DNA of 64,000 nt from an archaeon (GTDB lineage Archaea; Micrarchaeota; Micrarchaeia; Norongarragalinales; UBA97): NCBI GenBank assembly GCA_020057405.1, contig JAGVFW010000011.1:13111-77110 (forward strand), written 5' to 3'. The notes under the pieces were generated by a model. The model made no database searches. It was given only the letters and a program-made list of their open reading frames with translations, and was not told where the DNA came from. A program made the position numbers and the translations under genes. How positions within the stretch are numbered: position 1 is the stretch's first letter; each line of letters opens with the position of its first letter. Of this stretch, positions 1,986 through 20,584 are shown piece by piece.

Positions 1986-2338
1986 TAGAATTCCTTCCAG
2001 CCGCTTGCGATGTCTTTAGCAAATTCTTCGGGAACGCCGGTTTGAACGAAAGTGAGCTTGGTGTTCTTGCCGGCGGCGGTTAATTGAAAAACAACTTTGG
2101 AGAAAACGCCGTCGGGCCAGTCGCTGGCGCGCCACGCTTGGACAATTTTCTTTGATTCAACCAGCTCGAGGTTCTTCCCTGTTGCCCAACCGTCAAAGGC
2201 AGTGAACTTGCCGCCCGGTATCCGGCTGATTACAGCCTTGCCTCCCGTAAACGCGGAGTGCTTGGCCGAATCCATCAAAGCGGCGTAAACTAGAACAGGT
2301 TTTGCGGGCAGAATGACCGACTGGCGGATTGACTTCAT
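1943..2338 (-). CDS. SRPBCC/AHSA1 (activator of Hsp90 ATPase-like) family protein
   Basis: Composition and WKEFYW / GWATGKNLELVE motifs resemble the AHSA1/START-like fold. Confidence 0.55.
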   Translation of the reverse strand: MKSIRQSVILPAKPVLVYAALMDSAKHSAFTGGKAVISRIPGGKFTAFDGWATGKNLELVESKKIVQAWRASDWPDGVFSKVVFQLTAAGKNTKLTFVQTGVPEEFAKDIASGWKEFYWSPLKKFLRSTAI

Positions 2339-2384
2339 TTAACCAAAGCCAATAGGAAAACGAGGTTTTTTAAGCCCCCGAAAA

Positions 2385-2852: not shown

Positions 2853-2948
2853 GCACTTCGCCCATTCTTCCGACGGGGGACCCGGCAAACCCCCCAACAC
2901 TCTTTTTTATTACCCTCTTTTCCCTAACAACCTAGAGAGTGGGTCGTT

Positions 2949-3626
2949 ATGCGGTTCTTCAAGTACGGCGAGAAAGGCAGTGAAATCCTGGCAATAGTGC
3001 TGCCTGGAAGCATCCAGCGAAGCTCAATGGTGAAGGAAGGCGACGAGTACGAGTTCATCGAATTGGCTCCGGGGGCTTTCTTCCTCGCAAGCAAGGCATA
3101 TCTCTCCGACGTGACTAGAAAAGACCTCGTCGCCAAGCTTGGAGCCAAGGTATTTGAATCAAGCGTCAAGCCCGCCGGGCAAACGACCGCGGCGCCCGTT
3201 TCGCAAACAGCCGTCCCGGCTCCAGTGGCCAAGGTAGAGTCTCCAAAACAGTGGGCGGCAGTCGGGGTACCGCAGTCGGCTTCAAAGAACTACTTTGAGG
3301 GCGAACTTGAAAAGCAGGGCTTTTTGGTCGTGGAAAACGAGGCCGAGGCCAAGGAACTCAGTAAAGCGCTCGAGGCCCGCATCAAGACGGGCGACGTCAA
3401 GGGCGTGCGCGGGTTTGACAAAAAGTTTTACATCGTCAGCCGCGAGTTCTACGAGTCGAATGTCGCAAAAGTGATGAACTCGCCGCCCAAGTCGGAATTC
3501 ACTGCCGCCGAAGTCACGGGCATCGTGAAAACTCCCGAACCCGGCGCCGCCGCACTATTGCAAGTGATGAAGGAAGAAGGCCAGTTGCTTGAGAAGCGCC
3601 GCGGCTACTACCAAATCATCAGGTAG
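2949..3626 (+). CDS. hypothetical protein (225 aa)
   Basis: Long ORF with coding-like composition and a plausible TTG/ATG context; no recognisable motif. Confidence 0.4.
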   Translation: MRFFKYGEKGSEILAIVLPGSIQRSSMVKEGDEYEFIELAPGAFFLASKAYLSDVTRKDLVAKLGAKVFESSVKPAGQTTAAPVSQTAVPAPVAKVESPKQWAAVGVPQSASKNYFEGELEKQGFLVVENEAEAKELSKALEARIKTGDVKGVRGFDKKFYIVSREFYESNVAKVMNSPPKSEFTAAEVTGIVKTPEPGAAALLQVMKEEGQLLEKRRGYYQIIR

Positions 3627-3635
3627 TGATGAAAA

Positions 3636-4271
3636 TTGGTTAGGAAGCAAGCTCTCTTTTCCAAGATGGCTACGTGGCCCGGCCGCCACGCTTCACTGAT
3701 TAAGGAAATGGCGCGCATCCTGCCCTCAAGCGGCAGGCTCGAAATCGTGAACTACGGGCCTGGCGTGATGCACAAGGGCTTTGTTCCGCTGGTGCCAAAA
3801 GGGGAAAAAGCATCCAAGGGCCCGCTCGTGCGCAGCTGGGGCCGCGCAATCCGCCTAGTTGAAAGTACGGCCAGAAGACGCATGGAAACTCCCGAAGGCC
3901 TCGTGACTTTCGAGCCTTTTGAAATCGCCCAGGCGATGGGCGAGGAGAAAAAAGACTTCCGCCTGACCGTCATCGACAAGAAGAGCCATGTGCAAACTGT
4001 GATGGAAAACTCTCCGAGTTATCCTTTGCATCGCAAGAACATCCGCTTCATCAACGCCGGCATAGAAACATTGAGCACGCCCGCCCACGGCATTGTCGCA
4101 CTTGCCGTGATTGGCTACGCAGACCGAAAGAAAGCGGTTGCGAACATGGCAAAAGCGCTCGAGACCGGAGGGGTTCTTGCAACCGACCACCTCACGGAGA
4201 AAGAAATGGCGGAGCACGGCCTGAAACTCCACAGGAAGTACGCCGACGGCGCACTCTACGTCAAGCAATAA
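3636..4271 (+). CDS. hypothetical protein, possible Rossmann/methyltransferase-like
   Basis: LEIVNYGPG resembles a Gly-rich motif I; otherwise unassigned. Confidence 0.35.
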   Translation: MVRKQALFSKMATWPGRHASLIKEMARILPSSGRLEIVNYGPGVMHKGFVPLVPKGEKASKGPLVRSWGRAIRLVESTARRRMETPEGLVTFEPFEIAQAMGEEKKDFRLTVIDKKSHVQTVMENSPSYPLHRKNIRFINAGIETLSTPAHGIVALAVIGYADRKKAVANMAKALETGGVLATDHLTEKEMAEHGLKLHRKYADGALYVKQ

Positions 4272-4273
4272 CC

Positions 4274-4285
4274 GGGGGGGGGGGG
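4274..4285 (+). repeat. G12 homopolymer tract
   Basis: Twelve consecutive G, 2 nt after the stop of the 3636-4271 gene. Confidence 0.9.
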
Positions 4286-5148
4286 AATACCGGAATGCCG
4301 CTGTTTTTATTCCGTCCCGCGGTTCGCCCTATTACCCACTAAAGTGATGCCCCCCTATGCCGTCAGTCTTCGTACTGTCAAACGACCGCCAGTCAACAGA
4401 CTCAGCCATGGCGTTTACCGGCGACGAGTTAATCGTGCTCGTCGTCATCGACAAGGGCGCCCTCGCGACGAGCTTCGATTCAAGAATGGACGCGATTGAA
4501 CGAAAGGCAATGGCCCTTGAGCACAAGCTCGCATCTATCGGCAAAAAGTGCCGAGTCATAGTCGAGTGGGGCGACAAGAATGAAGTCGTCGCAAATACCC
4601 TCACCCGCGAGCGGGCGCAACTTTTGCCTAGCTGATTCGCTTTAGCCCGAAGCCATTATATTCCGCCTGCTGGAAGTCAATAGAATATGGCGGCCAAACA
4701 CTTCCTGCGCAACAACGCCCAGTTGATTAAAGGACTCAGGCAAATTACTGCCGCCAGCGACAGGCCTCTAAGCATGGCAAGTTTGGCGGGCTCGATGCAC
4801 AAAAAAAATCGCGCTCGGCCTTGGCCGCATGAATGTTCGCACCGAAAACCAAGCGATTTCACGAAGCGGCAACCGCGCAGACATTGTCGTCGCCCTAAGC
4901 ACGCCGGTAGCCAACTTGTCTAAGCGGAGCCTGCACTTGAGTGCGGCCCGCTCTGCAATGGCAAACGGCGGGTGGCTTGTCACAAAACCACTCGCGCCAG
5001 AAGAACTCCTGGCTCACTCGCTAAAAGAACACGCCAACTACGGAAAAACAGCCATTTACGTGGTAGACGAAAAGACGCGATCGCGCCGGTAAACGCACCC
5101 TCCCCCCGCGCCGCCGATAATAAAAGCCTGCGCGACATAAGCACCTTC

Positions 5149-6312
5149 ATGCTGCATCCGCGCCTCATTAAAGACGCAATCCACGACTCGATTGAGCTTA
5201 GCGACGTGGAGTTGGCCGTCATCGACTCACCTCTTTTCCAGCGCCTGCGGTTCGTGCGCCAGCTCTCGACCGCCTATTTAGTCTACCCGAGTGCGATGCA
5301 CACGCGGTTTGAACACTCGCTTGGCGCGATGCACTTGACGGGCGTCCTTGCGCGGCGCTTGGGCTTTCCTGAAGGCAAAGTGCGGGCCCTGCGCCTCGCG
5401 GCGCTTTTGCACGACATTGGCCACGGGGCTTTTGCACACGTGAGTGACCCGCTCTTGCAGGAAAAGACGGGAAAAATGCACGAGACGCGCGGGCTTGACC
5501 TCGTGCGCCGAAGCGGGCTAAAGGAAATCGTCGAGGACGCGGGAGTCAGCCTCAAGGAATTAAGCCGGCTGATGGAAGGCAATGACGAGGGTGCCATTAT
5601 CACTAGGGACCTGGGCACCGACAGGATCGACTATCTCTTGCGCGACGCGCACTTTACTGGAGTGGCGTACAGCACGATTGACGCAGACAGGCTCCTCCAC
5701 ACCATGGCTTATCGCAAGGGCGAGTTGTTTGTTGAAGAGCGGGGAATGTTGGCTGCCGAGAGCCTCCTGGTTTCAAGGCACTTCATGTTCAAGGCAGTCT
5801 ACTACCACCCCACCGTACGCATATCTGGCGAGATGGTCGCCCAGGCGATGCGCGAGGCCCTAGCCGACGGGCGGATTGCGCTTAACGACATTGCCCAAGG
5901 CAGCGACGAGCGGCTGCTCTACACGCTTGAGGCGGCCGGAAGCGACTTGGCGCGCAGGCTGCTTGAACGGCGGCTCTTCAAGTCAGCCTACTCAGTCGAC
6001 TTTCGCCGGGGCGCGGGTGCGCTTGCGACGGTCCGTTCAGCCGGCTTCAGGAAGCGCTTTGCCAAGCACATGGAAGAAAACGGGTTTATGCAAGACGATT
6101 ATTTGGTGTCGTTGCCTGACAGGCGGGAATCGCACTTTAGCGCCAAAGTCTTGCTAAAGGACGGCAGGACGACTACCCTTGACCAAGCAAGCGGCCTGGT
6201 GCGCGCCCTTGAGGCCGAGGGGCCGGAAAGCCCGCTTATTGTCGCCTGCAAGCCCGGGCTAAGGGAAAAAGTTGCAAAAGCGTCGAAAGCGTTTTTCAGC
6301 CGCTTACGCTAG
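5149..6312 (+). CDS. HD-domain phosphohydrolase (dNTPase/SAMHD1-like)
   Basis: H..HSLGAMHL and LHDIGHGAFAH metal-binding motifs. Start placed at the internal Met (MLHPRLIKDAIHDSIEL) that matches the family N-terminus; the ORF finder's longer 4972 start adds a basic, low-complexity extension. Confidence 0.75.
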   Translation: MLHPRLIKDAIHDSIELSDVELAVIDSPLFQRLRFVRQLSTAYLVYPSAMHTRFEHSLGAMHLTGVLARRLGFPEGKVRALRLAALLHDIGHGAFAHVSDPLLQEKTGKMHETRGLDLVRRSGLKEIVEDAGVSLKELSRLMEGNDEGAIITRDLGTDRIDYLLRDAHFTGVAYSTIDADRLLHTMAYRKGELFVEERGMLAAESLLVSRHFMFKAVYYHPTVRISGEMVAQAMREALADGRIALNDIAQGSDERLLYTLEAAGSDLARRLLERRLFKSAYSVDFRRGAGALATVRSAGFRKRFAKHMEENGFMQDDYLVSLPDRRESHFSAKVLLKDGRTTTLDQASGLVRALEAEGPESPLIVACKPGLREKVAKASKAFFSRLR

Positions 6313-6510
6313 CGGGCGAAAATTTGGAGAAGAAGCTCGATGACGATTACGAAGACTGCAAATCCGACGACGAGCTTTGGGTCAAGCTGGATGTTGCTTG
6401 CGCTCACGTCATAAAATCGCATGAGCCCGGTGCTTCCCGCGGGTGCGGTAATGCGCTCGTCTGCCATAGTCTTTATTAAATCGGCAAACGCATTTAAAGC
6501 GTTGGTTGTA

Positions 6511-7371
6511 ATGGCGGACGACATCAAGGGCGTGCTAAAAGAAATCCCCAACATCATAGTTTTAATCCTGCTAATCGCCGCGCTCTTATTTGTCGCAACC
6601 AAGTTCAAGTGGGTTCACTGCAGCCAAATCCCGCAGTGGTGCGATGTCTACTGCCGCATCACGGGCAACTCGCAGGTGGCAGTAATTTACGGCGCTCCCG
6701 ACGACCCGGGCACCGGCGATGCTCTTCTCTTGCGACGCAGGATAACGGCCGAGCGGCTCTTTACTAACGTCGTGCCGTTTCGGTCAAGTGAATTGTCGGG
6801 GGGTATCCTCGATGACTACGAGATGGTGGCCCTAACCCAGTTCAAGCGCATCACTTTACGCGAGGCGATTGTATTGCGCGACTTTCTTAACAAGGGCGGG
6901 TCGCTCTTGTGGGAGGGCGACGCTGCAAGCGAGTACAGGTTTAGCGGGGAGGACGACACTTACGCGAGGCAGATGAATCTCACGAGCCCCGGCTTCTACG
7001 AGGCATTCAAGGACGCGGTCGTCAACAAGAGCAAGGGATTCGGCATTTTGGGCGACATTCTTGGCGCGCAATACAACAAGACCGTGCCCGCAAACCCGCA
7101 AATCATCCGCATCAAGGCGCTCTCCGAAAGCCACATGGTAGTGCAGGGAGTCAAGAACTTCAACCTCTCCCGCGCGCCCTACGCGATTGTCACCGCCGAC
7201 CCGCGATACTCCACCCAAGTCGCGGTTTTCAGGACGCCGGACGACAAGAGCCACCCCATGTTCCTCGATAGAAAGTACGTGGGCCGGCTGTTTTACACTG
7301 CAGTGCCCCTCGAGTACATCGACAGCCGCACGCTTTTGACCAACGTAATGGACTACATGGTGACGTGCTGA
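6511..7371 (+). CDS. membrane-anchored GATase1-like (ThuA / GH42-trimerisation-like) protein, paralog A
   Basis: N-terminal TM (IIVLILLIAALLFVA); VAVIYGAPDD...YEMVAL...LRDFLNKGGSLLW pattern of class-I amidotransferase-like folds. Start chosen at Met 6511. Confidence 0.4.
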   Translation: MADDIKGVLKEIPNIIVLILLIAALLFVATKFKWVHCSQIPQWCDVYCRITGNSQVAVIYGAPDDPGTGDALLLRRRITAERLFTNVVPFRSSELSGGILDDYEMVALTQFKRITLREAIVLRDFLNKGGSLLWEGDAASEYRFSGEDDTYARQMNLTSPGFYEAFKDAVVNKSKGFGILGDILGAQYNKTVPANPQIIRIKALSESHMVVQGVKNFNLSRAPYAIVTADPRYSTQVAVFRTPDDKSHPMFLDRKYVGRLFYTAVPLEYIDSRTLLTNVMDYMVTC

Positions 7372-8312
7372 GGGGAAAGAAAGAGTTTAAATACGGGAGA
7401 ATGTTTTATAAACTGCAACCAGTAAAATCAGATACGCTGTTAAAACTCTTCAATGGTGATGAATTTATGAAGCGCGGTCAGGCTTATGTTCCTTCGGGCG
7501 GCAGCCACATGTTCGAGAGCGCCATCCCGCTCATCCTCATCGCCATTCTCGCAATCTTCATCGCAGGGCGCTTCGGCATCATCGACTTTAGCGGCGTCCC
7601 CGTGCTCAACAGCATCTTCCCCTCGCCGAAAATTGTAGTCGGCGTGGTCGGACGCGCTTCGCCCGAAATGGAGCAACTGCTCCAGAGCGAGGACTTTAGA
7701 GTCGCAGGAGTATACTACGCCGGCAACATTGACCAGCGCGTAGTCTACAACGGCGTGCTCAACAACTTCGACGTAGTCATAGCCCAAGGCGACCCCGTCT
7801 GCGACAGAACAGCTAGGAAGGTCATGGGAGACCGCGTGAAGGCTGGCGGCAAGCTCATGATAATCCAGGATGCCTGCACTCGCGTAAGCGATGACAGGGC
7901 AGCGTTTGGCTGGGACATTGGCATCGGCAGCCTTGGAGACGTAGTGCCAGTAATCATCGGCGGCGTTACCAAGGAACTCACGCCGTGGACTACTGAACCC
8001 CGCGCAGGCAAGTTCAAGATTATCGACGTCGAGCACCCGATATTTAATGGCGTGAAGAACTTCCAGTTCTTCTCAACCATTACCTTCATCACGGTGCCCA
8101 AGCCCAACGCGCGCATCCTCGCGTTCATCGACGCGAGCTCGATTGGCAGGCCGACCGGCGAGAGCTGGTTTGCCATCGTCGAGAGCCAGGGACTGCTTTC
8201 AGGCAAGGTCATTTACTTCAGCTTTGACCCCGCCACGGTTGCAGTCCAGGGCGGAACCGGCAGGAACATGTTCCTCAACACCCTGCTCTACCTGCGCGGC
8301 GCAAAGGGCTAA
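7365..8312 (+). CDS. membrane-anchored GATase1-like protein, paralog B
   Basis: Same architecture and size as the 6511-7371 protein (TM, then VKAGGKLMIIQD); overlaps the upstream gene by 7 nt; start uncertain. Confidence 0.4.
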   Translation: MLRGKKEFKYGRMFYKLQPVKSDTLLKLFNGDEFMKRGQAYVPSGGSHMFESAIPLILIAILAIFIAGRFGIIDFSGVPVLNSIFPSPKIVVGVVGRASPEMEQLLQSEDFRVAGVYYAGNIDQRVVYNGVLNNFDVVIAQGDPVCDRTARKVMGDRVKAGGKLMIIQDACTRVSDDRAAFGWDIGIGSLGDVVPVIIGGVTKELTPWTTEPRAGKFKIIDVEHPIFNGVKNFQFFSTITFITVPKPNARILAFIDASSIGRPTGESWFAIVESQGLLSGKVIYFSFDPATVAVQGGTGRNMFLNTLLYLRGAKG

Positions 8313-8373
8313 GTCCCACTCCGCTGGCCTTTTGGCCAGCTCTTTTATTTTTCAAAACCCCCCAGCGCCTAGC

Positions 8374-8380
8374 TTTTAAT
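8374..8380 (+). promoter_or_regulatory. TATA-like box (TTTTAAT) ~25 nt upstream of the GTG start at 8402
   Basis: Archaeal TTTAWA-like element at spacing consistent with a leaderless transcript. Confidence 0.35.
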
Positions 8381-8401
8381 TCACTTCGAGGTTAGCATAG
8401 C

Positions 8402-11332
8402 GTGGCTCCCTACCTTGACTCGGCCTCTCACGAGGGCTGGCACGAACCAGAACAAGCGCCCCTGCAGTTTCCCTCAGGCGAGCCGCCAAAACCAGTTACC
8501 CTCAAGAGCATAGGCTACGGCATCCTCGCACTCGCAATCCTGGCGGCGCTCCTGGCAATGCAGGCGCCCGAAGAGCCCAATGAGAAAACAACTTCCGGCA
8601 CGTCATCAAACCTGCTAAGCAAGCTCGGCTCGACAGTGACGCGCGTAGCCAACGCGATACTCGGCCTAGAGCCCAAAAAACTCGCTGCAACAGTAAACGA
8701 CACGAAGAACGCGATTTCAACTACGCCTGCTCCAACACCGGTAGCGACGAGCCCAACGCCTTCCCCCACGCCCGACCCCTGCGCTTGTCCTGGCATTTAC
8801 ACGCCGGTCTGCGGCTCTGACGGCAGGACTTACTTCAATGTTTGTGTTGCAACCTGCGAGGGGGTCTCAATTGCGCCTGCAGAGAACTGCGTGAACTCGA
8901 ATCTTCCCATAGTCACGCCCCGGCCAATGCCCTCGCCAGGCTCGCAAGGCAGTCCCACACCAACACCCTGTCCATCCTGCAGCCCAACTCCCACTCCAAC
9001 GCCGACGCCTTCGCCCACGCCAACACCCTGCCCATCCTGCAGCCCAACTCCCACTCCAACGCCTACCCCGTCACCGACTCCCACGCCTACTCCGTTTCCA
9101 GCGGACTTTTTCGTTGCGCCAACCGCTTGCAGCGACTCCAACCCGGGAACGCAAGCGCAGCCGTTCTGCACTATACAGAAGGCGCAAGCCGAAATCCGCA
9201 GCCTGATTGCGGGCGGCATGGCCAAGGACGCGATAGTGGCGCTGAGGGAAGGCGTTTATCGCATCAACTCGACCATTAACTTTGGCGCAAGCGATTCTGG
9301 CAAAAACGGCTTCAAGGTCAAGTACGTCGCGTACCCCGAGGAAACGCCGGTCCTTCGCGCCAGCCGCGACATCACGGGCTTCGCTCCAACAGGCCAACAA
9401 GGCGTTTTTTCGACCAACCTGCAAAGCGCGGGCTTATTCGACAACGGTTCGCTCGTGTTGTTCTACAACGGTCAGCTCCAGCAGCCGGCGCGGTACCCAA
9501 ATTACCGGGCCCCGGACTTTGGCGCGATAGACCCGTGGGCCGGAAACTTCCTGTACGCGACCGCGCCGAGCTTGACTGCGGACCTCAAGATTTACTACGA
9601 CACCACGAAGCTTGACGCCAGCGGCTGGACGACCGCCCCCGGGAGCCAGGTGGTGATTTTTACCGGCCCCAACTACGTCAACAGCTTTGGTGGAGTGGCA
9701 AGCATCAGCCAAAGCACTGGGACAATCAACATAGCGCGCATAAACAACCAAAACCAGTGGAGCTGGGACTCTGCGTGGCCCTATGACATCAGGGTCGGCA
9801 ACAGGTTCTACATCCAAAACGTTCGCGAGGCGCTTGACGCACCCGGCGAGTGGTACTACAACCCGCAGACGAAAGACCTCTTCTTCTATCCGCCCGCGCC
9901 AATGGGCCAAAACGACCGCGTTTCGCTCCCGGCGGCCTACGACATCATTCGCGTCGAAGGCGGCCAAAACATGGAGTTTAGCGGCCTCACCCTCGAGGAA
10001 GCGTCGGGAACAGGCTTTCTTTTGCACAACAGCAACAACATCGTGATTGCCAACAATGAAATCCGCAGCATAGTGATGAACGACAACAAGCACCCGGGAA
10101 CATGGGGACGCGTCTGGCCGTACGTCTCCTCGCGCGGCATTTACGCGTACGCCGAGGCGGCATCCGACCCGCAGTTCGAAAACATCGTGATAGAGAACAA
10201 CTCAATCCACGACATCGGCGGCGAGGGAATAAGCCTGGGGTCGGCCTCCACAACCCAGGCAAACCAAGACAGGTCAAACGAAGACTACCACTTCAAGAAC
10301 CTGGTTCCGCACAACCACCGCATAACATACAACAAAGTCTATGACACGGGCAAGGTCGCCGCCGGGACTACCGCAATCAAGTTCCGAGGCGTTGGCATTA
10401 CGGTATCGCACAACGAGGTCCACGACGTGCCCCGCATAGGCATCGGGTTCCAGGGAAACGATGACATAATCGAGTACAACCTGGTCTACAACGTGAACCG
10501 GCAGACGGAAGATTCCGGCGGCATCACGCACGGCTCGCGCGGCTGGACTTACCGCAACAACACCATCCGCAACAACTTCGTGCACGACACCGGCGGCTAC
10601 GCGTTCAACAACAGCGGCAGCGGCCTCTACGAGTTCAACAAGTTCAGTTGGGGAATTTACCCCGACGACTTTTCAAGCCAGTTTGAAATCCACGACAACG
10701 TTGTTGCCCGAGCTTCCAAGGGCATGGTGCAAATTCATTCGGGACGCGACAACTACATCCACGACAACATCGGCATTGAAGGCGCCTACAGCGGGCTCTA
10801 CGCGCAAGGCGAGTGGGGAAAGGCAGCCGACAACGCCTCCTTCCAAAACATGTGGAACGAGGTGCAGAACCTTGCCGGCTGGGGCTTCGACACGGCAAAA
10901 TACTATAGCAAGTACCCGCTGCTTGCCAACATACCCAATCCCGCAACCATGGCCGAGAACACGGTGTTCGACAACAACAAGTATGATCGCAACATCATCT
11001 ACTACCCGGGGCACGCGAGTGCTCCCGCTTACTGGGTGCGCCACATCATAGGCACTCCAAACACGGCATTCACCAAGAACCTACTTTGGAACGGCGGCGG
11101 CTCGATTTTCGTGCAGGAACCCGAAGCGGTATCCCACGGCGGCAGCTACACTTGGACCAATGGCGCCTACGTAGCCTTCTACAACTGGACGTACTGGAAG
11201 CAAATGGGCTACGACGCAGACTCACTAATCGCCGACCCGCTCTTCACCAACCCGGCTGCAGACGACTACACTCTCCAGCCGTCGTCGCCCGCCTGGGCAC
11301 TCGGCATGCACAACGTCATCGTGCCACGGTAA
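8402..11332 (+). CDS. membrane-anchored Kazal-domain protein with Pro/Thr linker and C-terminal right-handed beta-helix (pectate lyase/PbH1-like) domain
   Basis: GTG start supported by the paralog N-terminus (MAPY..HEGWH); TM helix; Kazal pattern [29 protein letters not shown]...ENC with six Cys; PTPTPSPTP linker with two CPSC motifs; repeated [13 protein letters not shown] / [20 protein letters not shown] beta-helix repeats. Confidence 0.75.
8961..9080 (+). repeat. 60-bp tandem duplication (x2) inside the Pro/Thr linker of the Kazal gene
   Basis: 8961-9000 and 9021-9060 are 39/40 identical, encoding [18 protein letters not shown] twice. Confidence 0.8.
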
Positions 11333-11358
11333 GTGTGAGAAAGCTTCACTGCAATCAG

Positions 11359-11367
11359 CTTTTATTT
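11359..11367 (+). promoter_or_regulatory. TATA-like box (CTTTTATTT) ~22 nt upstream of the ATG at 11385
   Basis: AT-rich box in an otherwise GC-rich context. Confidence 0.3.
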
Positions 11368-11384
11368 GCTAACGCAATTAGGGG

Positions 11385-11942
11385 ATGGCAATGGCTCCCT
11401 ATCACCTAGACGCCGACCAGCACGAGGGCTGGCACCAAGAAAGGCAGCCCGCGCCCCAGCTTCCTGAAGACCATGCGCCAGAGCCTTTCTCGCTCAAGCG
11501 GCTTGCGCTATCGGTGCTCGCAATAGCGATTGTCTCCGCCATGCTGATGGTGCAAGTGCCTTCCGACGCAGCCGAAGGTGCCACGCACTCAACCACCCTA
11601 GGCTCAAAGCTCGTCACCGCAGTCGGCGTCGTGGCGGATGCCATTCGCTCGTTTGCACCGAAGAACCTGTATGAAAAAGGCGGCGCAGAAGGCAACCTGC
11701 AGGGGACCGCCAATGCCTCGAATCAAACCGACCCCACGCCCATTCCGACCCCCGATTTTGGCGCGTGCGGCTGTGAGCGCGCGTACAAGCCAGTCTGCGG
11801 CCGCGACGGCATCACCTACAACAACACGTGCTTTGCCACGTGCGCGGGCGTCATCATCGCTGCTGCTGACGACTGCGTTACTGCAAAAACGGCTACTCCG
11901 AGGCCCGTCGTCGCGCCCTACGGCACGCCGGTGCCGAGCTGA
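11385..11942 (+). CDS. short membrane-anchored Kazal-domain protein (paralog lacking a C-terminal enzyme module)
   Basis: N-terminus MAMAPYHLDADQHEGWH parallels the 8402 protein; TM; Kazal CGCERAYKPVCGRDGITYNNTCFATCAGV...DDC. Confidence 0.7.
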   Translation: MAMAPYHLDADQHEGWHQERQPAPQLPEDHAPEPFSLKRLALSVLAIAIVSAMLMVQVPSDAAEGATHSTTLGSKLVTAVGVVADAIRSFAPKNLYEKGGAEGNLQGTANASNQTDPTPIPTPDFGACGCERAYKPVCGRDGITYNNTCFATCAGVIIAAADDCVTAKTATPRPVVAPYGTPVPS

Positions 11943-11953
11943 GTTGTGGAAAA

Positions 11954-12409
11954 ATGATTGTCGGAGTGGACGCGGGGCTGACAACGGCAATCGCGTTCGT
12001 GTCACTTGACGGCAAGCCCGTTTCCGCCAAAAGCGGCAAGCACTGGGGTTTTGAGGAGGCGATGCTTGCAGTTGCGCAAGGCGCCCCATCAGTTGAGATA
12101 GTGGCCTGCGATACCAATCCTTCGAGCCACTTTGCCAAGCAGCTGGCCTCGGCTTTTGGCGCTCGGGCTTACGTGCCCCGCCATTCGCTTCCGGTGATTG
12201 ATAAGGAGCGCATTGCGCAAAAAAGCGGGCTAAAGCTCAAGAACAAGCACGAGCGGGACGCCCTTGCCGCCGCTGTTTGCGCCTGGCGGCATTACCAGAA
12301 CAAGCTAAGGCAAGCCGGAACCAAGGCAGTCAAGGCTGGAAAGGCTGCTGGTGAAGTGCAAAAGCGCGTGCTTGCGGGAGAGAAGATGGCGTACTTGGTA
12401 CGAAAGTGA
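11954..12409 (+). CDS. RNase H-fold (YqgF/RuvC-like, DUF460-like) protein
   Basis: MIVGVDAGLTTAIAFVSLDG N-terminal motif typical of RuvC/YqgF-like resolvase folds. Confidence 0.4.
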   Translation: MIVGVDAGLTTAIAFVSLDGKPVSAKSGKHWGFEEAMLAVAQGAPSVEIVACDTNPSSHFAKQLASAFGARAYVPRHSLPVIDKERIAQKSGLKLKNKHERDALAAAVCAWRHYQNKLRQAGTKAVKAGKAAGEVQKRVLAGEKMAYLVRK

Positions 12410-12412
12410 GTC

Positions 12413-12787
12413 ATGCGTTTAAATAACTTGGGCAGAATAATCTGCTTTATGGAACCGACTAAGACTACCGCTCCAAGCGGCGATGCAAAACAATCCGCCA
12501 AGCCGGCACGGGCACCGTTTGAGGGAAACGTCATTTTTGTGGGAAAAAAGGAACCCATGAACTATGTACTGGCGCTAGTTGGCAGGTTTAACGCGGGGGC
12601 GGCGAGCGTGGAGCTAAAAGCCCGCGGCCGAACAATATCGAAAGCCGTTGACATTACACAAATCCTAAAGAACCGCTTTTTGTCCGACGTGCGCATTGCC
12701 GACGTCAAGCTATCGACAGAGGAAGTCGAGAACGAGGACGGCACGAAAAGCCGCGTAAGCAGCATGAGCGTAACGCTCTCCAGGTAA
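12413..12787 (+). CDS. albA: chromatin protein Alba
   Basis: [16 protein letters not shown]...[26 protein letters not shown] matches the Alba core; 30-aa N-terminal extension, start may be Met 12449. Confidence 0.8.
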
Positions 12788-12792
12788 ACTCC

Positions 12793-12798
12793 TTAAAT
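12793..12798 (+). promoter_or_regulatory. TATA-like box (TTAAAT) ~26 nt upstream of the GTG start at 12822
   Basis: Spacing consistent with a leaderless mRNA. Confidence 0.35.
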
Positions 12799-12821
12799 CC
12801 CGTCCCTGCGTAACGGTTTGC

Positions 12822-14642
12822 GTGAACGAACAGTCACTCGAGGCACAGTCAGAAGAAAAGAAGGGGATGGAGGGATTCGGCCTCGTCACCCTCCTGCTCG
12901 CCATCGGCATGCTGCTGCTCTACTTTAGCGCGGGGGGCGGCGACTCCAAGCAATTTCTCGAAAAAGCATCAAACTCCATCCAAAACCTGACTCAAACAAT
13001 CAGGGAAACGGGAAACGAGCCAACTCCGCAACCAACCCCGGCGGAGATTGGCTCAACGGCAACTCCGACGCCAGAGGCCGAAGGCGAGTTTGCGCAATGC
13101 GGGTGCCCCAAAACCTATTCACCCGTATGCGGTTCCGACGGCAACACCTACTACAATGGCTGCATGGCAAGATGTCGCGGAAAAGAAATCGCGAACGCCG
13201 AAAACTGCGTAAAACCGTGGATAACGCCAGTACCAACGCCCAACCCAAGCTCGACGCCTACACCAACTCCGCTGCCAAGCACGACCCCCACGCCCAACCC
13301 CTCGCCAACAATTAGCCCCACGCCAAGCCCAACTCCCACCCCGACGCCAAGCCCAACGCCCTCACCGACTCCCACGCCAACCGCGAGCCCAACGCCACAA
13401 GCGGACTTCACTTTCGGCTGGTACACGATGGTCGAAACCGGATCCTTTGCCAACCTCAGTGCAATAGCCAGTGCCGGCGGATCGAACACGGTAATTGCCT
13501 ACTCGTGGCCAGCCGAATGCGGCGGCTGGGGACCCACGGTGAACCACTCTTGCTGGAGAAACTACCTTGATGCCGCACAAGCCCGCGGAATCAAAGTATG
13601 GGCTGAAGTTCCAAGAAACCTGGTCAATGCCCAAAACTTCACGGGATTGAGGCAATTTGCCCAAGGCCTCAGGGGCCACCCGGCACTCGCGGCGTACTAC
13701 CTTTCCGACGAGCCCGACCAGGCGTTCTGGCAAAACGACCCTAGGTTCAGCCCACAAAACATGACACTCGCATACCAAGTGCTAAAACAAGAAGACCCCC
13801 AAACGCTAGTAACCCACGTGGTTGTGCAAGTGGGCTTTGGCGTTTACCCGCAACTCGACTGCAGCGCGTACGGCGACCCAAGCAAGCACCACCTAGGGTG
13901 CCACAAGCCCTACGGACAAAACACGGCCATCTACAACGCTAGCACTTGCGGGGAACGCGATTTGTGCAACCTCGCCTACTACGAACCGTCCGCCGACATC
14001 CTCTCTACCGACTACTACCCGTTCGAGTATGGACTCGAAGGCCAAACCATCAAGAACGTGACAGTCTACCCCTACTGGCCCTTCGACCGCACCAAAAAAT
14101 GGAGCGAATACGCCAAAGCCCGGGGCAAAAACTACGTAGCGATAGTGCAAGGAACCTACTGGCTCGACCGGCTTATTTCGATGACGCCCGAACAACTGGA
14201 ATTGCATCCCACAAAACAAGAATACCGCTTCTACTCAATAGGCAACATGCTGGAGGGGGCAACCGGCATCATCGCATTCGTTGCCTACCGCTCTTCCCAA
14301 AATGTTAGGAACAACATCATCGCACCCGCCTACAGCGACATACAATCGTACAAAAAACTATTTTATGACGGCATCGCGGCGTCATGTGTTCCGGCCCAGG
14401 AATGCGCGGAAGTAATAGCAAAAACCACTCAAGACGGAACCGACGGAACACTTATTGGTGCGCTTAACGCCAATTTCACAACTCAGCGAACCATCACGCT
14501 TGCCCTGCCCGCCCCGGTCACCTCGGTCAAGCTCTTTGAAAACGGCGTCCTGCAAGACTACCCCGGCCTAATCAGCATAAACGGAAACGCCATTACAATC
14601 CGGTTAGAACCCCAGCAAGCAGTACTGCTAAAAGCAAGCTGA
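12822..14642 (+). CDS. membrane-anchored Kazal-domain protein with Pro/Thr linker and glycosidase-like TIM-barrel domain (family unassigned)
   Basis: GTG start; N-terminal 75 aa ~85% identical to the 14863 paralog; Kazal [29 protein letters not shown]...ENC; long PTPSPTP linker; C-terminal domain with YYLSDEPD (acid/base-like) motif. Confidence 0.7.
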
Positions 14643-14727
14643 AAAGAAAAACGCGAATAACTCGTTTCATCACCAAACAATTATCAGCACTAGGAAGATG
14701 CACTAAACGCGCAGACCGTACCCTATT

Positions 14728-14739
14728 CCCCCCCCCCCC
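14728..14739 (+). repeat. C12 homopolymer tract
   Basis: Twelve consecutive C between Kazal paralogs 3 and 4. Confidence 0.9.
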
Positions 14740-14834
14740 GACCGAATCGGCCAACACGTACTCAGCGCCAACCGAACTCGCACTCGATGTGCCCGACAAG
14801 ACACTCGCACTCAGGTTGACACCCGGTTAGCGAA

Positions 14835-14840
14835 TTAAAA
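14835..14840 (+). promoter_or_regulatory. TATA-like box (TTAAAA) ~26 nt upstream of the GTG start at 14863
   Basis: Same spacing as the paralog promoter at 12793. Confidence 0.35.
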
Positions 14841-14862
14841 GCGCAACTCGCGTTACGATAGC

Positions 14863-17229
14863 GTGGACGAACAGGCACTCGAGGCACAGGCTGATGAGAA
14901 GAAGGGAATGGAGGGATTCGGCCTCGTCACCCTCCTACTCGCCATCGGAATGCTCATGCTCTACTTCAGCGCGGGGGGCGGCGACTCCAAGCAAATGCTC
15001 CAAAACGCATCAAACACCGTCCAAGACATAACCCAAACAATCAAAGAAACGAGCAACGAGCCGACGCCGGAGCCAAGCGAACCCACGCCAGAACCATCTA
15101 CTGAAACGCCCACGCCGCCTCCTGGGGAAGAGCAAAACGAGTTTACACAATGCGGATGCCCCGAACTCTATTCTCCAGTGTGCGGAGAGGATGAAATAAC
15201 ATACTACAACGCGTGCATGGCACGCTGCCGCGGGCGAAGCATAGTCGACGGCCAATACTGCGACCCGAACAACTGGCCAACTCCCCGGCCAACACCGACG
15301 CCAACCGTAACGCCCAAACCAAGCCCCACGCCAACCCCTTGCCCAAGCTGCGCAACGCCGACCCCTACACCCACGCCAAGCCCAACTCCCAGCCCTGGCC
15401 CCACTCCAATGCCAACCCCGCCACTCGATTATTCGGGCTACTGGAGTTTCGACAACTACAGCTCCACAACGGTCTTTGATGCGTCACCAAACCACTTTGA
15501 CGCAGCCTATACCGCAGGCGACTCGAGCCAAAACAGCGTCAACGGTGCTTTTGGAAAATCACTCAAGACCACCCAAACGAACTACGCCCGCGCGGCAGGA
15601 GACGCCCTCACCGACGGCCCGTTCACCGTAACCAGCTGGTTCAAGCACGACGCCGAACTCGTCTCCGACCAACCAACTCCCTGGGTAGGCGGCTTGGGCA
15701 AGGCCTACCGCATGCGCTTGGGCTGGATGGGCGGCGGCACGGACTTTTACCAAGGTGGCTGGATGTGCAAAATCAATTCCGGCAACGCGCCAAGCGTCTA
15801 TCAAGTTTATCCAGTCAAGGCAGGCGTTTGGTACAATGTCGCATGCACTTGGGACGGCAGCTCGATTAAACTCTATGTCAACGGCTCGCTAGTGCGAAGC
15901 GACAGCTACGCTAGCCAAAGCTATGTTGGCAGCGAACAGTTTGACTTTGGACGCTCAAGCGACACTTACTGGGTCGGCAGCATTGACGAAGTGAGAGTGT
16001 ATCGGCGAGCACTTTCCGAAAGCGAACTCTTGACAATGTCGCCCGACTGGGCCAAGAAGCGCCAGACTGAAACACCCAAATCCACCTACTCCTTCACTGA
16101 CTCGATTGGAGTAAACATGCACGACTGGCCTAACTATGAGTCGGCAATCGCCCCCCGCGTGCGCGAACTGGGCGTCAAGCACCTGCGCGACAACCTGTGG
16201 TTCATCAACAAGAGCGCCTGGACCCAAACTAAGATGCGCCAACACATTGGGGACGGCGTAAAATACGCCTTGATTCCCGACCAATTCATGCTCAACGCCA
16301 CCGACGTCGTGCCCTATCTCAAGTTCCTCTACGGCAACCTCTCAGGGCAGTACGGTAATTCATTCATCGACGTAGTCGAAGGGCCAAACGAGCCCGACAA
16401 CTTCTACGACAACGTTCCGAACATCCTGCAAAAAACATTCGACTACCACACTTCGATGTACGCCGCTATCAAGGCCGACTCACAAACGCAGGCAATCAAA
16501 GTCGCCGCGCCGTCACTCACACTAAGCCACGACCGAAGCGCCTTCGACGACTACAACTACGCACCCATTGCCGACTACGCAAACGGACATTTCTACCAGG
16601 AACCCCTAAATCCCGGCTACCCACTCATCGACAAGAGCGAATACTACGTCAAGGGCGAAGCGCCCGGCCTACCCGTGCTTGTGACAGAAGCAGGCTACAC
16701 TACCTACTCCGGCGGCTTTAGCGAAACATTACAGTCGAAATACCTCGTGCGCACGCTCCTCGAATACTTCAACCGCGGCTACCCCCGCACCTACCTCTAC
16801 GACTTTGCAAACGACGGCCCATCAGGCGACGACCAGTACCACTCGCGCTTCGGGCTAGTAACCTGGGACGCGGTGCCAAAACCCTCATTCTACGCAATCA
16901 AGAACCTCATCACCATCCTCTCCGACACTAGCACGCCAATAACGCCACACGCTCTTGACTATGAACTCGAGACAACTAGTGCCGACCTTCATCACCTGCT
17001 CTTGCAGAAGACAAACGGCGACTGGTACCTCGTGTTGTGGCTCGAACGCAAGAGCACCGACACCGACGTCACTGCACAAGTGACAATCCGCACCTACACT
17101 CCGGTGACGCAAGCGCAGTTATTCGAGCCCCACGTCTCGGCAAGCGCAACGCAAACTTTCGCCAACCCCGCAGTAATTACGCTAAACGTGCCGGACAAGG
17201 CAGTGATTGTCAAGCTCACTCCCGCTTAA
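14863..17229 (+). CDS. membrane-anchored Kazal-domain protein with Pro/Thr linker, LamG/ConA-like lectin domain and clan GH-A glycoside hydrolase domain
   Basis: Kazal [29 protein letters not shown]; PCPSC-containing PT linker; LamG signature [22 protein letters not shown]; GH-A acid/base [10 protein letters not shown] and nucleophile [10 protein letters not shown]. Confidence 0.75.
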
Positions 17230-17946: not shown

Positions 17947-18936
17947 TTAAAGCGTGGTGACGGGGCGCGCCTGCACTATGTAGAAGACACCTGACTCGAG
18001 GGCCCACTCAAGGTCTTGGGGCGAACCGTAGTGCACCTCGATGCGGTTGCACAGCCGCGAAAGCTCAAGTACCTTGAGGCCGGAGAGCTTCTGCTTGGCG
18101 CGCTTGTCTGCAGGCACTGGCAGGTGTTGCGTGCCGCCAGTAGGCCCGCGGACAATCATTTCCTCCTGTTCATTCACCTGCACGTCGAGAAGCATTTCCT
18201 CAGCCTTGTCGACAACGTACTTGTCTGGAGTAATCAGCCCGCCCACTATTGCCTCGCCAAGACCGAAGCCCGCCTCGATTACCATCTGGTTGCGGTCGCG
18301 AGTGACGGGATTGACGGTGAAGGCAACGCCGCTCACCTCGCTCTCGACCATCTTTTGCACGACAACACCCACGCCCACTTGCGCCTTCTCCAGGCCCTGC
18401 TCAAAGCGGTAGAAAATCGCGCGGGGAGTGAAGAGCGATGCCCAGCACTTTCGCACGGTTGGCAAAAGCGTCTCGCCAGTCGTATTGAGGTAGCTTTCTA
18501 ACTCTCCGGCCCAACTCGCTGCCGAAGCATCCTCGGCGGTTGCACTCGAGCGTACTGCGACAAAACGCGCGCCGAGAGTATTGAATTGCGCAGTTATGGC
18601 ACTGGCCATGTCTTGAGGAATATCTGCCGACTCAATCAACGAACGGATATTCTTGCTTGCCGCGTCAACGCTCGACGTGTTGTGCTGGTCCACTTTAGCC
18701 AATTCAATGGCAATCTTTCCCCCAAGCCCGTTAACGCGGATGAATTCATCAAATGAAGCAACAGAAACGACAAAACCTGGCGGGACAGGAATGCCGGCCG
18801 CAGTCATTTCACCAAGCTGCGCACCCTTGCCCCCAGCAATTGCAACGCTGGCCTTCGAAAGAGAAGCAAAAGGCAAGACAAACTTTTCCATAAACCTAAC
18901 CCCAAACTCTATCGTAATTGTGGCCTGCTGCGACAA
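17947..18936 (-). CDS. stand-alone PEP/pyruvate-binding ATP-grasp domain protein (PPDK_N; PEP synthase / rifampin phosphotransferase-like)
   Basis: VAIAGGKGAQLGEM...PVPPGFVV...WASLFTPRAIFYR...GVAFTVNP match the PPDK N-terminal nucleotide-binding domain; ORF stops after this domain. Confidence 0.75.
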   Translation of the reverse strand: MSQQATITIEFGVRFMEKFVLPFASLSKASVAIAGGKGAQLGEMTAAGIPVPPGFVVSVASFDEFIRVNGLGGKIAIELAKVDQHNTSSVDAASKNIRSLIESADIPQDMASAITAQFNTLGARFVAVRSSATAEDASAASWAGELESYLNTTGETLLPTVRKCWASLFTPRAIFYRFEQGLEKAQVGVGVVVQKMVESEVSGVAFTVNPVTRDRNQMVIEAGFGLGEAIVGGLITPDKYVVDKAEEMLLDVQVNEQEEMIVRGPTGGTQHLPVPADKRAKQKLSGLKVLELSRLCNRIEVHYGSPQDLEWALESGVFYIVQARPVTTL

Positions 18937-19030: not shown

Positions 19031-20584
19031 CTACCCCTCTAGCTTCCTTACGATACCCTTGACCGCGTCAACCTCGACCAAGTCACCGTCCTTGAGCACT
19101 TTCGTCGCAATTTTCGTGCCAATGACGCAAGGCACGCCAAGCTCGCGGCTCACTATCGCCGCGTGCGAAGTGACTCCACCCTGCTCGGTGACGATTGCGC
19201 CTGCCTTCTTCATCGCAGGAACGACGTCAGGATTCGTTGCAATTGCGACTAGGATGTCTCCCTGCTGCATCTTCGGCAGGTCGGCTGGTGACAAGACGAT
19301 TTTCACTCTGCCGGTTGCCTTCCCTAGGCAGGCGCACTGGCCGTGAAGCTCGCTGATGTTACCGTCAACCTGGACAACTGCGGTTGAGGCAAGAAGCGCC
19401 GCGTCGTCGCCAGTGACTAGCATGTCACGGCCTTTCTCCGAGTAGAGGACAAACTCGCTGCGCGAGCTTAGTTTCTCCAAGTCGAAGCTGCCTGTAAGCA
19501 GCGCCTCGTACTCTTTCGGCAGCATCGTTCGGGCTTGGTCTAGCGTGATGCCCTTGCGCTTGGCGATTTCCTTGAAAACCGCACGCAGGCGGTAGACTGC
19601 ACGCAATTGCCGGTAGCGGCGGTAGAGTTTCGTGAGCATGAACTGGCCGAAAACGTGGAAGAGCCGCTTGAACTTGCCGTCCATTCCAATTTTTGCCTCG
19701 AGGTCTGCCTTCTCAAGCGCCTTGACTTTCAGGTCGTTCTCGATGCCCTCAAGCTCCTCAGAGGGCGACTTGCCGGACTTGAGGTAGTCGGAGAGCTCGC
19801 CAATGTAGTGCCTAACTGGTGCCTTTTCGCCTACCCAGAGGGCCGAGATTGGCGAATACTCGCCGTAGTAGGCAAGCAACATGTCCCCGGCCTTGCCGCG
19901 CATCTCCGCCTCGATCACGTCGGCCGGCTGGTGAAGGAACAACTGCTTGTGGAAAGCGTTGTTCTCGATCTCAATTGCAATTGAGAGGAACCGCTCGTGC
20001 TGTTCCGCTTCCTCGCTGCGGTCGGAGGGGGTGGTCAATGCAACGAAAAGCGTGTTGACCTCGTCCTCGCCATTTGCTTTTGTGCGCAGGTAGCGCTTGA
20101 GAAGTTCAGTAAACTCAGGGTAGAACATGTCGGTCGCGTTTGGCAGCCAGCCCCACTCGTAGAGCGAGGAATGCACTTCCAAGTGGTCCTTGAGAAGGAG
20201 CCACAGCTGGGCGTCGGAGAGCGGCTTGAGGTCGGCAGGAATTTTCTTGCCGCTTGCCTCAAGGGCATCCGAGTGCCGCACGATCTCGGAGTTTATTTTC
20301 TCGCCGTAGCCGGGGTCGGCGTCCATCTTGTTGACTAAGTTTAGCGTGAAGTCAAGGCAGCTTTGCTTGCCGTAGTAGAAGCTCATGTCACGGCCCTTGA
20401 AGTGGCCGAGGATTTTGCTGTAGTTTCTCCCGCAGCTGTCCTCCATGTTGTTGACAAAAGCGCGGAGCCAGATTTGGCAGAAGAAAAAGTCAATGTTGGG
20501 AATGTCTTCAGCAACCATCCACTCGTCGCCGTCAGCCAAGCACTTGAGCCCGTTCTCTTTCGAGAGTTGTTCGATTCGTTCCAT
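19031..20584 (-). CDS. PEP-utilising enzyme mobile (His-swivel) domain protein with ~400-aa unassigned N-terminal domain
   Basis: C-terminal GGVTSHAAIVSRELGVPCVIGT is the phospho-His swivel signature; N-terminal region has no motif I recognise. Confidence 0.7.
   Translation of the reverse strand: MERIEQLSKENGLKCLADGDEWMVAEDIPNIDFFFCQIWLRAFVNNMEDSCGRNYSKILGHFKGRDMSFYYGKQSCLDFTLNLVNKMDADPGYGEKINSEIVRHSDALEASGKKIPADLKPLSDAQLWLLLKDHLEVHSSLYEWGWLPNATDMFYPEFTELLKRYLRTKANGEDEVNTLFVALTTPSDRSEEAEQHERFLSIAIEIENNAFHKQLFLHQPADVIEAEMRGKAGDMLLAYYGEYSPISALWVGEKAPVRHYIGELSDYLKSGKSPSEELEGIENDLKVKALEKADLEAKIGMDGKFKRLFHVFGQFMLTKLYRRYRQLRAVYRLRAVFKEIAKRKGITLDQARTMLPKEYEALLTGSFDLEKLSSRSEFVLYSEKGRDMLVTGDDAALLASTAVVQVDGNISELHGQCACLGKATGRVKIVLSPADLPKMQQGDILVAIATNPDVVPAMKKAGAIVTEQGGVTSHAAIVSRELGVPCVIGTKIATKVLKDGDLVEVDAVKGIVRKLEG

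Follow-up and report, generated by a model that had tools for sequence, protein, structure and literature searches.

A tandem array of Kazal-domain proteins with a predicted membrane tether and exchangeable glycan-active modules in a Micrarchaeota archaeon

Introduction

The Kazal inhibitors LDTI (PDB 1an1, 1ldt, 2kmo), rhodniin, infestin and dipetalin (MEROPS I1) are small soluble proteins secreted by blood-feeding animals, and they are the closest described counterparts of the domain considered here. We examined a 64,000-nucleotide stretch of archaeal DNA (contig JAGVFW010000011.1; "the window" denotes this whole stretch) in which four co-oriented genes, K1 to K4, each encode a Kazal domain with the cysteine spacing, the P-V-C-G-S-D-G-x-T-Y-x-N core and the reactive-site context of these inhibitors. 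In contrast to the soluble animal proteins, the archaeal domain sits between a predicted membrane helix and a Pro/Thr-rich (PT) linker, which in three of the four proteins leads to an enzyme-like module. Several archaeal members also have Gly, Glu or Ser at the reactive-site position P1, unlike LDTI with its P1 Lys, and the archaeal domains are putative inhibitors.

Surface-held inhibitors are known from animals. RECK, which is glycosylphosphatidylinositol-anchored and carries Kazal motifs (8tzp matches our Kazal profile at 6e-11), controls pericellular proteolysis, and the Kunitz-type proteins HAI-1 and HAI-2 are membrane-tethered protease regulators built on the same concept. These animal proteins differ from the array in having neither an N-terminal helix anchor nor a fused enzyme, and there is no homology outside Kazal. 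A further parallel is found in Phytophthora, whose EPI1 and EPI10 are secreted, apoplastic Kazal-like inhibitors deployed against partner serine proteases alongside glycoside hydrolases (GHs). There, inhibitor and enzymes are separate secreted proteins, whereas in the archaeal locus they are fused in cis on one polypeptide with a predicted tether; the papers that we found on oomycete EPI-type inhibitors treat the inhibitor and glycosidase classes side by side. Within the DPANN archaea, two other Kazal proteins (L079 and L037) place the domain directly after the signal or anchor and share the C-x-C start of K1 to K4.

Little is known of how DPANN archaea recognize, attach to and feed on other cells, and a function has been predicted for very few proteins of their surface. 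The locus described here offers testable candidates, namely putative tethered glycosidases, each equipped with a domain that shares 51-65% of its residues with a well-characterized protease inhibitor from animals, and it may constitute a toolkit for interaction with other cells. We consider its best explanation to be that the Kazal domains are surface-tethered canonical inhibitors that shield linkers and enzymes, held on a cassette shared with glycan-active modules, and we would give this explanation an even chance of being correct.

Results and Discussion

Four Kazal domains of the LDTI type

A sequence-only reading of the window had described four co-oriented paralogs with a common layout of stub, hydrophobic helix, Kazal domain and PT linker, and the open reading frames (ORFs), all four intact and on the + strand, reproduce this arrangement to the nucleotide. 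K1 (8402-11332; 976 aa from a GTG start) comprises a stub with the sequence HEGWH, a hydrophobic helix (about residues 37-56), a spacer, the Kazal domain (residues 127-163; 8780-8890 from C1 to C6), a PT linker in which C-P-S-C occurs twice and, as its tail, a parallel beta-helix of GH141-like type. K2 (11385-11942; 185 aa) has the same type of HEGWH stub and hydrophobic helix followed by its Kazal domain (11766-11876, CGCERAYKPVCGRDGITYNNTCFATCAGVIIAAADDC), and it ends 21 residues beyond that domain without any C-terminal module, as had been noted. K3 (12822-14642; 606 aa) begins with a short stub and a hydrophobic helix (about residues 17-38), continues through the Kazal domain (residues 93-129; 13098-13208) into a PT linker of about 60 residues, and terminates in a predicted clan GH-A (beta/alpha)8 barrel with a beta-sandwich and an invariant D-E-P. 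K4 (14863-17229; 788 aa) combines a K3-type head and a Kazal domain (residues 97-133; 15151-15261) with a PT linker containing C-P-S-C, a lectin-like Laminin_G_3 domain and, from clan GH-A, a GH39-like module that bears the motifs GPNEP and TEAG. Thus K1 and K2 share one type of head and K3 and K4 another, and long runs of Pro, Thr and Ser lie downstream of the Kazal domain in all four proteins.

Profile searches support the Kazal assignment of the sequence-only reading, with Kazal_1 and/or Kazal_2 above the Pfam gathering cutoffs in 4/4 ORFs (25.5-32.1 bits against cutoffs of 21 and 22.8; E values of 1e-5 to 1e-7). In a six-frame scan of the whole 64 kb, the motif C-x-C-x7-C-G-x-D-x2-T-Y-x-N-x-C-x3-C-x10-C occurs only at the four Kazal sites. 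A profile built from seven domains matched 83 Kazal chains in the PDB at E<=0.01, among them LDTI at E=2e-16 (positions 3-40 of both, ungapped) as well as rhodniin, infestin, dipetalin, ovomucoid, pancreatic secretory trypsin inhibitor, agrin, RECK and OATP transporters. Over the 37-residue core, 19-24 residues (51-65%) of each domain located by motif scan and LDTI alignment are identical to LDTI without indels, K1 being the closest with 24/37. Because the spacing C-x-C-x7-C-x10-C-x3-C-x10-C is the same in K1 to K4 and in LDTI, and because this identity is ungapped, we assign the four domains by sequence to the non-classical (LDTI-type) Kazal domains; from the same identity to a solved structure, we infer the Kazal fold with disulfides 1-5/2-4/3-6.

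The P1 residue was assigned by alignment to LDTI as the second residue after Cys2, a numbering that we take to be the same as in the third domain of turkey ovomucoid, where P3 is Cys2. On this basis P1 is Gly in K1, Arg in K2, Lys in K3 and Glu in K4, and the C-P-K reactive site of K3 is that of LDTI. In relatives of the array (described below) P1 is Ser in P0002, P0122 and L083/L084 and Ala in P0003 and L085, so that nine clade members carry six different residues at this position (G/R/K/E/S/A). The surrounding scaffold is invariant or nearly so in the same nine members, including the Cys residues, Tyr at P2', Pro-Val at P4'-P5', the G-x-D-G-x-T-Y-x-N segment and Ala at P19'. In a set of 241 Kazal domains from prokaryotes, no loop position varies more than P1 (3.27 bits). 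A comparison of the K3 and K4 Kazal domains yielded a nonsynonymous divergence (dN) of 0.06 at scaffold codons despite saturated synonymous divergence (dS), and a dN of 0.53 at the loop or contact-equivalent codons, although the counts are small (9 clade sequences for P1, and 9 codons in the contact class). In Kazal inhibitors, hypervariable contact residues set in an unchanging scaffold form a classic pattern.

Heads and predicted topology

Each protein has one hydrophobic stretch of about 20 residues (Kyte-Doolittle mean above 1.6) near its N-terminus, starting at residue 31 in K1, 35 in K2 and 15 in K3 and K4. In K1, Lys residues precede the helix and acidic residues follow it. The stub in front of the K1/K2-type helix is 89-94% identical between genomes, compared with 75-80% for the helix itself and about 55% for the spacer. 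As the best conserved part of the head, it is therefore unlike the n-region of a signal peptide that is discarded, and its conservation argues for a retained cytoplasmic segment and for a predicted signal anchor with N-in/C-out orientation. The K1/K2-type stub also contains an invariant APY-LD-x3-HEGWH (8402-8510 and 11385-11500; also in L081, L083, L084 and L085), which is shaped like HExxH and could, judging from the motif, be a sorting, partner-binding or metal-binding element.

C-P-S-C motifs occur within the PT linkers of K1 (8969-8980 and 9029-9040) and K4 (15340-15351), in P0122, and in L083 and L084, where the motif reads C-P-T-C. These motifs resemble the core of the antibody hinge, and by this analogy they may form interchain disulfides that join the displayed proteins into dimers or heteromers.

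Tail modules

The tails of K1, K3 and K4 differ, and none of them reaches a Pfam GH gathering cutoff. For K1, Pfam reported Beta_helix at 41 bits and a weak GH141_M match (19.6 against a cutoff of 27 bits). A profile of the K1 and P0122 tails matched the PDB entry 9rx2 ("parallel beta-helix repeat protein") at 7e-48 in three stretches that cover most of the chain, and 5mqp (BT_1002, which we take to be the founding GH141 enzyme) at 3.7e-21 over positions 6-310; a literature search on entry 9RX2 found no paper. By these sequence matches the K1 tail is a GH141-type beta-helix homologous to BT_1002 across the beta-helix. The right-handed beta-helix that had been read from the sequence is thus upheld, whereas its description as pectate-lyase-like gives way to GH141: no polysaccharide lyase family appeared in Pfam at E<=0.1 and no pectate lyase among the PDB sequence matches, the sole pointer in that direction being a precomputed Pel9A-like_beta_helix match of the relatives.

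The K3 tail (13419-14639) drew no Pfam match and no significant phmmer match among PDB sequences. Its homologs were sought with the tail alone, since full-length K3 drew low-complexity matches to the PT linker, and only 2 close homologs were found in 5.8 billion proteins; an exhaustive HMMER search added 253 distant relatives, which weakly match GH2_C, GH42, Apiosidase-like and DUF4434. A 51-sequence profile of the family matched GH158 in the PDB at 9e-13, as well as GH2 glucuronidases and GH5 mannanases, and aligned the family-invariant D-E-P (E98) after strand 4 with the acid/base motif N-E-S/P (N-E-S in GH158). An AlphaFold 2 model computed from a 2-sequence alignment was unusable (predicted local distance difference test, pLDDT, of 49.9), while the model from the 51-sequence alignment reached a pLDDT of 83.8 and a predicted template modeling (TM) score of 0.85. 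In Foldseek this model was matched with probability 1.0 and TM 0.5-0.56 to GH30 (XynC), GH39 (PslG), GH79 and GH140 over barrel and beta-sandwich. By profile and by predicted fold, the K3 tail is a probable, rare member of clan GH-A, in agreement with the TIM-barrel-like glycosidase with a DEP motif that had been proposed for it. It resembles GH30 (XynC) and GH158 in its barrel plus beta-sandwich and in the Glu at the acid/base position after strand 4, and it differs from GH39, GH30 and GH158 in having D-E-P rather than N-E-P and a near-invariant Gln244 that closes strand 7, a place at which enzymes of clan GH-A keep their nucleophile Glu. An invariant Glu268 lies 24 residues beyond Gln244. 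Such a signature points to a mechanism outside the canonical one, which may be substrate-assisted, or to a role other than hydrolysis, and the K3 tail would define a rare, uncharacterized clan GH-A family with an unusual catalytic signature.

In K4, Laminin_G_3 was found at 8.4e-24 in Pfam. A profile of the K4 and P0003 tails matched 5jvk (7e-8), PslG (2e-4) and GH39 beta-xylosidases in the PDB, with an alignment that includes the T-E-x-G region, and K4 and P0003 share G-P-N-E and T-E-x-G without change. In K4 these motifs, which in clan GH-A hold the acid/base Glu (after strand 4) and the nucleophile Glu (after strand 7), read GPNEP and TEAG and align with GH39-type enzymes (PslG, XynB). Against Pfam Glyco_hydro_39 the tail scored 12.6 bits, under the cutoff of 26, so that its assignment stays at the level of the clan. 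From these alignments we assign the K4 tail to the clan GH-A glycoside hydrolases, GH39-like and with both catalytic motifs, which agrees with the LamG-plus-hydrolase architecture read from the sequence.

Exchange of heads and tails between related genomes

Four related metagenome contigs (L081, L083, L084 and L085) overlap the locus, and a scan of metagenomes gave at least 3 confirmed loci. L085 is colinear with positions 434-8324 of the window, and its neighboring proteins are 81-93% identical. A K2-like gene of 181 aa comes directly next, in the same position as K2 between a ThuA-like gene and the DUF460 gene, with a conserved tail (ATPRP-VAPYG), and K1 is absent. From this comparison, K2 is a conserved gene and not a remnant. 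Directly upstream of the array lies a pair of tandem proteins (6421-7371 and 7365-8312) that have one hydrophobic helix apiece and weakly resemble ThuA / ABC_transp_aux; unlike the variable Kazal genes beside it, the pair is 89-93% identical in amino acid sequence in L085.

L083 begins with the end of the DUF460 gene and the Alba gene and continues with a gene that joins a K1-type head, K1-type Kazal domain and PT linker to the start of a K4-type LamG tail, and the same K1-head/LamG-tail gene is present in L084, so that this architecture is replicated in two independent metagenomes. L081 aligns with the window at 74% DNA identity just upstream of K1 and at 77% at the HAD gene just downstream of K4. 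Between these two syntenic flanks it contains a single gene, P0002, with a K1-like head and a K3-like tail (49% identity). The change from one type to the other falls within the part of the gene that encodes the Kazal domain: its first half is 81% identical to K1 (58% to K3), its second half 71% identical to K3 (55% to K1). On a further contig, P0003 joins another head to the LamG-GH39-like tail, and on a second one P0122 joins another head to a TSP3-beta-helix tail.

Taken together, the number of Kazal genes at the locus is one, at least two or four in different related strains, with at least six head/tail combinations, and the swappable character of the modules in the sequence-only reading is borne out by the K1-head genes with K3 or LamG tails. 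By these comparisons the locus is a recombination hot spot at which head and tail modules are exchanged between related genomes, and we attribute the differences in copy number and in head/tail combination to the shared cassette because it would provide homology for recombination. Such reshuffling from strain to strain marks a pressure typical of interaction interfaces. On a 206-kb contig (L082), two Kazal-TSP3-beta-helix genes, including P0122, lie about 10 kb apart (10001-12772 and 22636 to the end of the locus), separated by Fic, PIN, NrdR and ribonucleotide-reductase genes; multi-copy Kazal-enzyme genes are therefore not confined to a tandem array.

Within the array itself, K3 and K4 agree at 85% of the DNA positions in their 5' regions, as had been noted. 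Measured over 30 nt at a time, identity runs at about 80-97% between a point some 12 nt upstream of the start codon and about codon 70, beyond which it falls to about 50%; this delimits a tract at 12810-13035 in K3 and at about 14851-15080 in K4 (both +). The dS between the two genes is 0.28 in the head and about 1.9 (saturated) in the Kazal domain. Because of this gap of about 7-fold, K3 and K4 are old paralogs whose 5' ends (about 200 bp) were recently homogenized by gene conversion, and the recent duplication of the whole genes that had been proposed is ruled out.

Kazal domains in other prokaryotes

To place the array among prokaryotes, species-representative prokaryotic genomes were searched with the single narrow pattern PVCG[SRE]D[GER]x[TN]Y and matches were confirmed by tblastn, which yielded at least 527 confirmed Kazal matches in a listing without the genome of the window and those of P0003 and P0122. 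A lineage breakdown of the best 80 of these matches, a biased sample, comprises Myxococcota or "Deltaproteobacteria" (21), Bacteroidota (19), DPANN or "uncultured archaeon" (10), Candidate Phyla Radiation (CPR) bacteria (9), Bradymonadia (5), Bdellovibrionota (3) and others (13). Myxococcota, Bradymonadia, Bdellovibrionota and Saprospiraceae are predatory, CPR bacteria, like DPANN archaea, are episymbiotic, and within these best 80 loci the Kazal domain is concentrated in such predatory or episymbiotic lineages.

The architectures of these other prokaryotic proteins include DUF5667 with Kazal in CPR bacteria and Nanoarchaeia, across the divide between bacteria and archaea; multi-Kazal proteins and Kazal paired with Antistasin modules in Myxococcota, the latter a protease-inhibitor context; Kazal with DUF11 and a type IX secretion system tail in Bacteroidota; and, in other DPANN proteins, Kazal first and then Cys-rich repeats. 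A glycosidase-like module was fused to Kazal in 0 of about 30 other prokaryotic Kazal proteins examined, there was no tandem Kazal array with exchanged tails among their fetched loci, and our literature search found no paper on the function of prokaryotic Kazal domains or on a Kazal-GH fusion. The claim that a fusion of Kazal with carbohydrate-active modules is an undescribed arrangement is thus sustained. The companion claim that Kazal modules are essentially undescribed in archaea was overstated, since arCOG10350 exists for the domain (PMC6697440) and a 2026 fold survey placed Kazal among the DPANN-unique fold groups, without follow-up (PMC13607799). Prokaryotic Kazal domains are not rare, and in archaea they are catalogued but unstudied. 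All single domains of the array are of known kinds; what is new is the cis-fusion of Kazal and glycosidase modules on a predicted tether, its occurrence in DPANN archaea and the shuffling of the cassette at the level of strains.

A proposed tethered inhibitor and its alternatives

In the explanation that we favor, the four proteins would be built on a shared cassette composed of a conserved cytoplasmic stub, a signal-anchor helix (N-in/C-out), a spacer, an LDTI-type Kazal domain and a Pro/Thr linker, which would be displayed alone in K2 and with a glycan-active module at its far end in K1, K3 and K4. Close to the membrane, the Kazal domain would act as a tight-binding, substrate-like (Laskowski-mechanism) inhibitor of serine proteases. 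Host or neighbor proteases would thereby be kept from the protease-sensitive linker beside it, from the displayed enzymes and from the cell surface. The Gly, Arg, Lys and Glu residues at P1 would give the paralogs different protease specificities, the displayed enzymes would probably cut envelope or matrix polysaccharides, and the shared cassette would supply the homology for recombination. The conservation of the Kazal-only K2 suggests that the domain has a value on its own. If the Kazal domains do inhibit proteases, they would provide the first functional evidence for Kazal inhibitors in archaea. They would also be the first inhibitors joined in cis with enzymes under their own protection, a design that would interest enzyme engineers, and they would extend pericellular protease control, known from animals, to archaeal surfaces. 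Several observations weigh against this explanation. P1 is Gly or Ser in K1, P0002, P0122 and L083, which is atypical of strong inhibitors, and many animal Kazal/follistatin-type modules (agrin, SPARC, OATP loops, HTRA1) are not protease inhibitors. Among the ORFs scanned in the window there is no serine protease gene, so no pair of target and cognate genes is in view; the variability of the loop could reflect relaxed constraint rather than tuning of specificity; the S-A-G|G that follows the hydrophobic helix of K3 and K4 is a possible cleavage site; and L081 is a single short-read contig of 2.9 kb, so that P0002, taken alone, may be an assembly chimera.

The main rival is a Kazal domain that inhibits nothing and serves, in the manner of agrin, follistatin or OATP, as a disulfide-locked structural or binding module, whether as the base or spacer of a PT stalk or as an element of adhesion or oligomerization. 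The Kazal profile matches agrin (6e-23 summed), OATP transporters (about 1e-5) and RECK, the sole NCBIfam match is the Kazal-like loop of OAT transporters, other DPANN archaea place Kazal before non-enzymatic Cys-rich repeats, the C-P-S-C of the linker hints at disulfide-mediated assembly, and the P1 residues just named fit a domain that binds no protease. We nonetheless consider this rival possible rather than probable, in that the closest full-length matches are the true inhibitors LDTI, rhodniin, infestin and dipetalin, the LDTI reactive site is retained in K3, K2 is conserved with a Kazal domain only, and the scaffold is under strong purifying selection while the loop positions vary, which a pure spacer would not need. 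The anchor itself is open to another reading, in which the hydrophobic helix is a cleaved Sec signal peptide and soluble Kazal-enzyme fusions are released into the medium. The hydrophobic segment is indeed single and N-terminal, it is followed by small residues (S-A-G-G-G in K3 and K4, A-M-Q-A in K1), and other DPANN Kazal proteins start with ordinary signal or lipobox-like sequences. On the other side, the n-regions are long (17-36 aa), acidic and, through the stub motif, highly conserved, features that signal peptides do not typically show; with its 20 or so residues, the hydrophobic stretch has transmembrane length; and Pro at +1 in K1 (A|PEEP) generally disfavors cleavage by signal peptidase. 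We regard release into the medium as unlikely.

A function in docking has also been considered, by which the domain would bind a serine protease on the surface of a host (or of the cell itself) nearly irreversibly, in the way of cohesin and dockerin, and so fix the glycosidases or the whole episymbiont, with P1 setting the partner. The prevalence of Kazal in predatory and episymbiotic lineages (in the biased sample of the best 80 loci), the diversity of P1 among the paralogs and the hypervariability of the locus between close relatives, which is usual for interaction surfaces, are in its favor. A domain placed next to the membrane, under a long linker and a large enzyme, would have poor reach to another cell, and no candidate partner protease has emerged; we find docking quite improbable. 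The same low standing applies to an extension of this idea, in which the cassette would be a recombination-driven display system that reshuffles glycosidase "warheads" between strains while the Kazal domains, each with a P1 of its own, would both shield the proteins and latch onto serine proteases of the host surface for recognition and attachment. Finally, the array might be decaying debris of duplications without functional meaning, with K2 as a truncated pseudogene, a view that could appeal to the missing tail of K2 and to the near-identical 5' ends of K3 and K4. K2 as a pseudogene is ruled out by its ortholog in L085, which has a similar length, position and C-terminal tail. All four ORFs are intact and each has a TATA-like box, the Kazal scaffold is under strong purifying selection even though synonymous divergence has reached saturation between the Kazal domains of K3 and K4, and the catalytic motifs of K4 are kept in P0003, which together make debris hardly credible.

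Genomic context and further features of the window

The window contains the archaeal markers MCM (with an archaeal winged helix and an intein), Topo VI-B, SMC and Alba, and its prolyl-tRNA synthetase is 55-66% identical to proteins labeled Candidatus Micrarchaeota, Micrarchaeia or Norongarragalinales, from which we assign it to a DPANN archaeon of the Micrarchaeota. The genes around the array are ordinary housekeeping genes. Two further housekeeping genes, unrelated to the Kazal genes, are embedded in the array between K2 and K3 (11954-12787, +), namely a DUF460 gene (11954-12409; Pfam 1.7e-25) and an Alba gene (12413-12787; Pfam Alba 1.9e-17, NCBIfam AlbA 7e-32). Inspection of the region upstream of K1 (8350-8401, +) revealed a TATA-like box (ttttaat) that ends about 24 nt before the GTG start, and in each of K1 to K4 such an A/T box ends 21-24 nt 5' of the start codon, which, on the model of archaeal TATA boxes, would point to a promoter for each of the four genes and to leaderless mRNAs.

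The window is rich in predicted exported proteins. An ORF of 325 aa (56029-57006) opens with the lipobox-like LLLGGC and combines a PT stretch with 29 cysteines, arranged in C-G-x3-C-x3-E-x4-C-x2-D-C repeats; it has no Pfam match and by its sequence is probably another disulfide-rich surface protein. In an ORF of 1199 aa (57608-61207), also without a Pfam match, a single hydrophobic helix at the N-terminus and a PS linker are accompanied by H-E-L-A-H, a motif like that of zinc metalloproteases. Two further predicted surface proteins (54193-55890 on the - strand, and 39577-40443) carry, respectively, an LVIVD repeat with a long PT/PA linker and a CARDB domain. An intein that includes a LAGLIDADG homing-endonuclease domain splits the MCM helicase gene (41125-44337). 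At 34104-34189 ARAGORN called a tRNA-Gly of 86 nt whose anticodon, ACC, is unusual; it has no Rfam tRNA match at the gathering threshold and may be an intron-containing tRNA or a false call. Lastly, PPDK_N and the PEP-utilizers mobile domain occur in separate adjacent ORFs (17947-18936 and 19031-20584, - strand), a pair that looks like a split phosphoenolpyruvate synthase or an enzyme of the pyruvate phosphate dikinase type.

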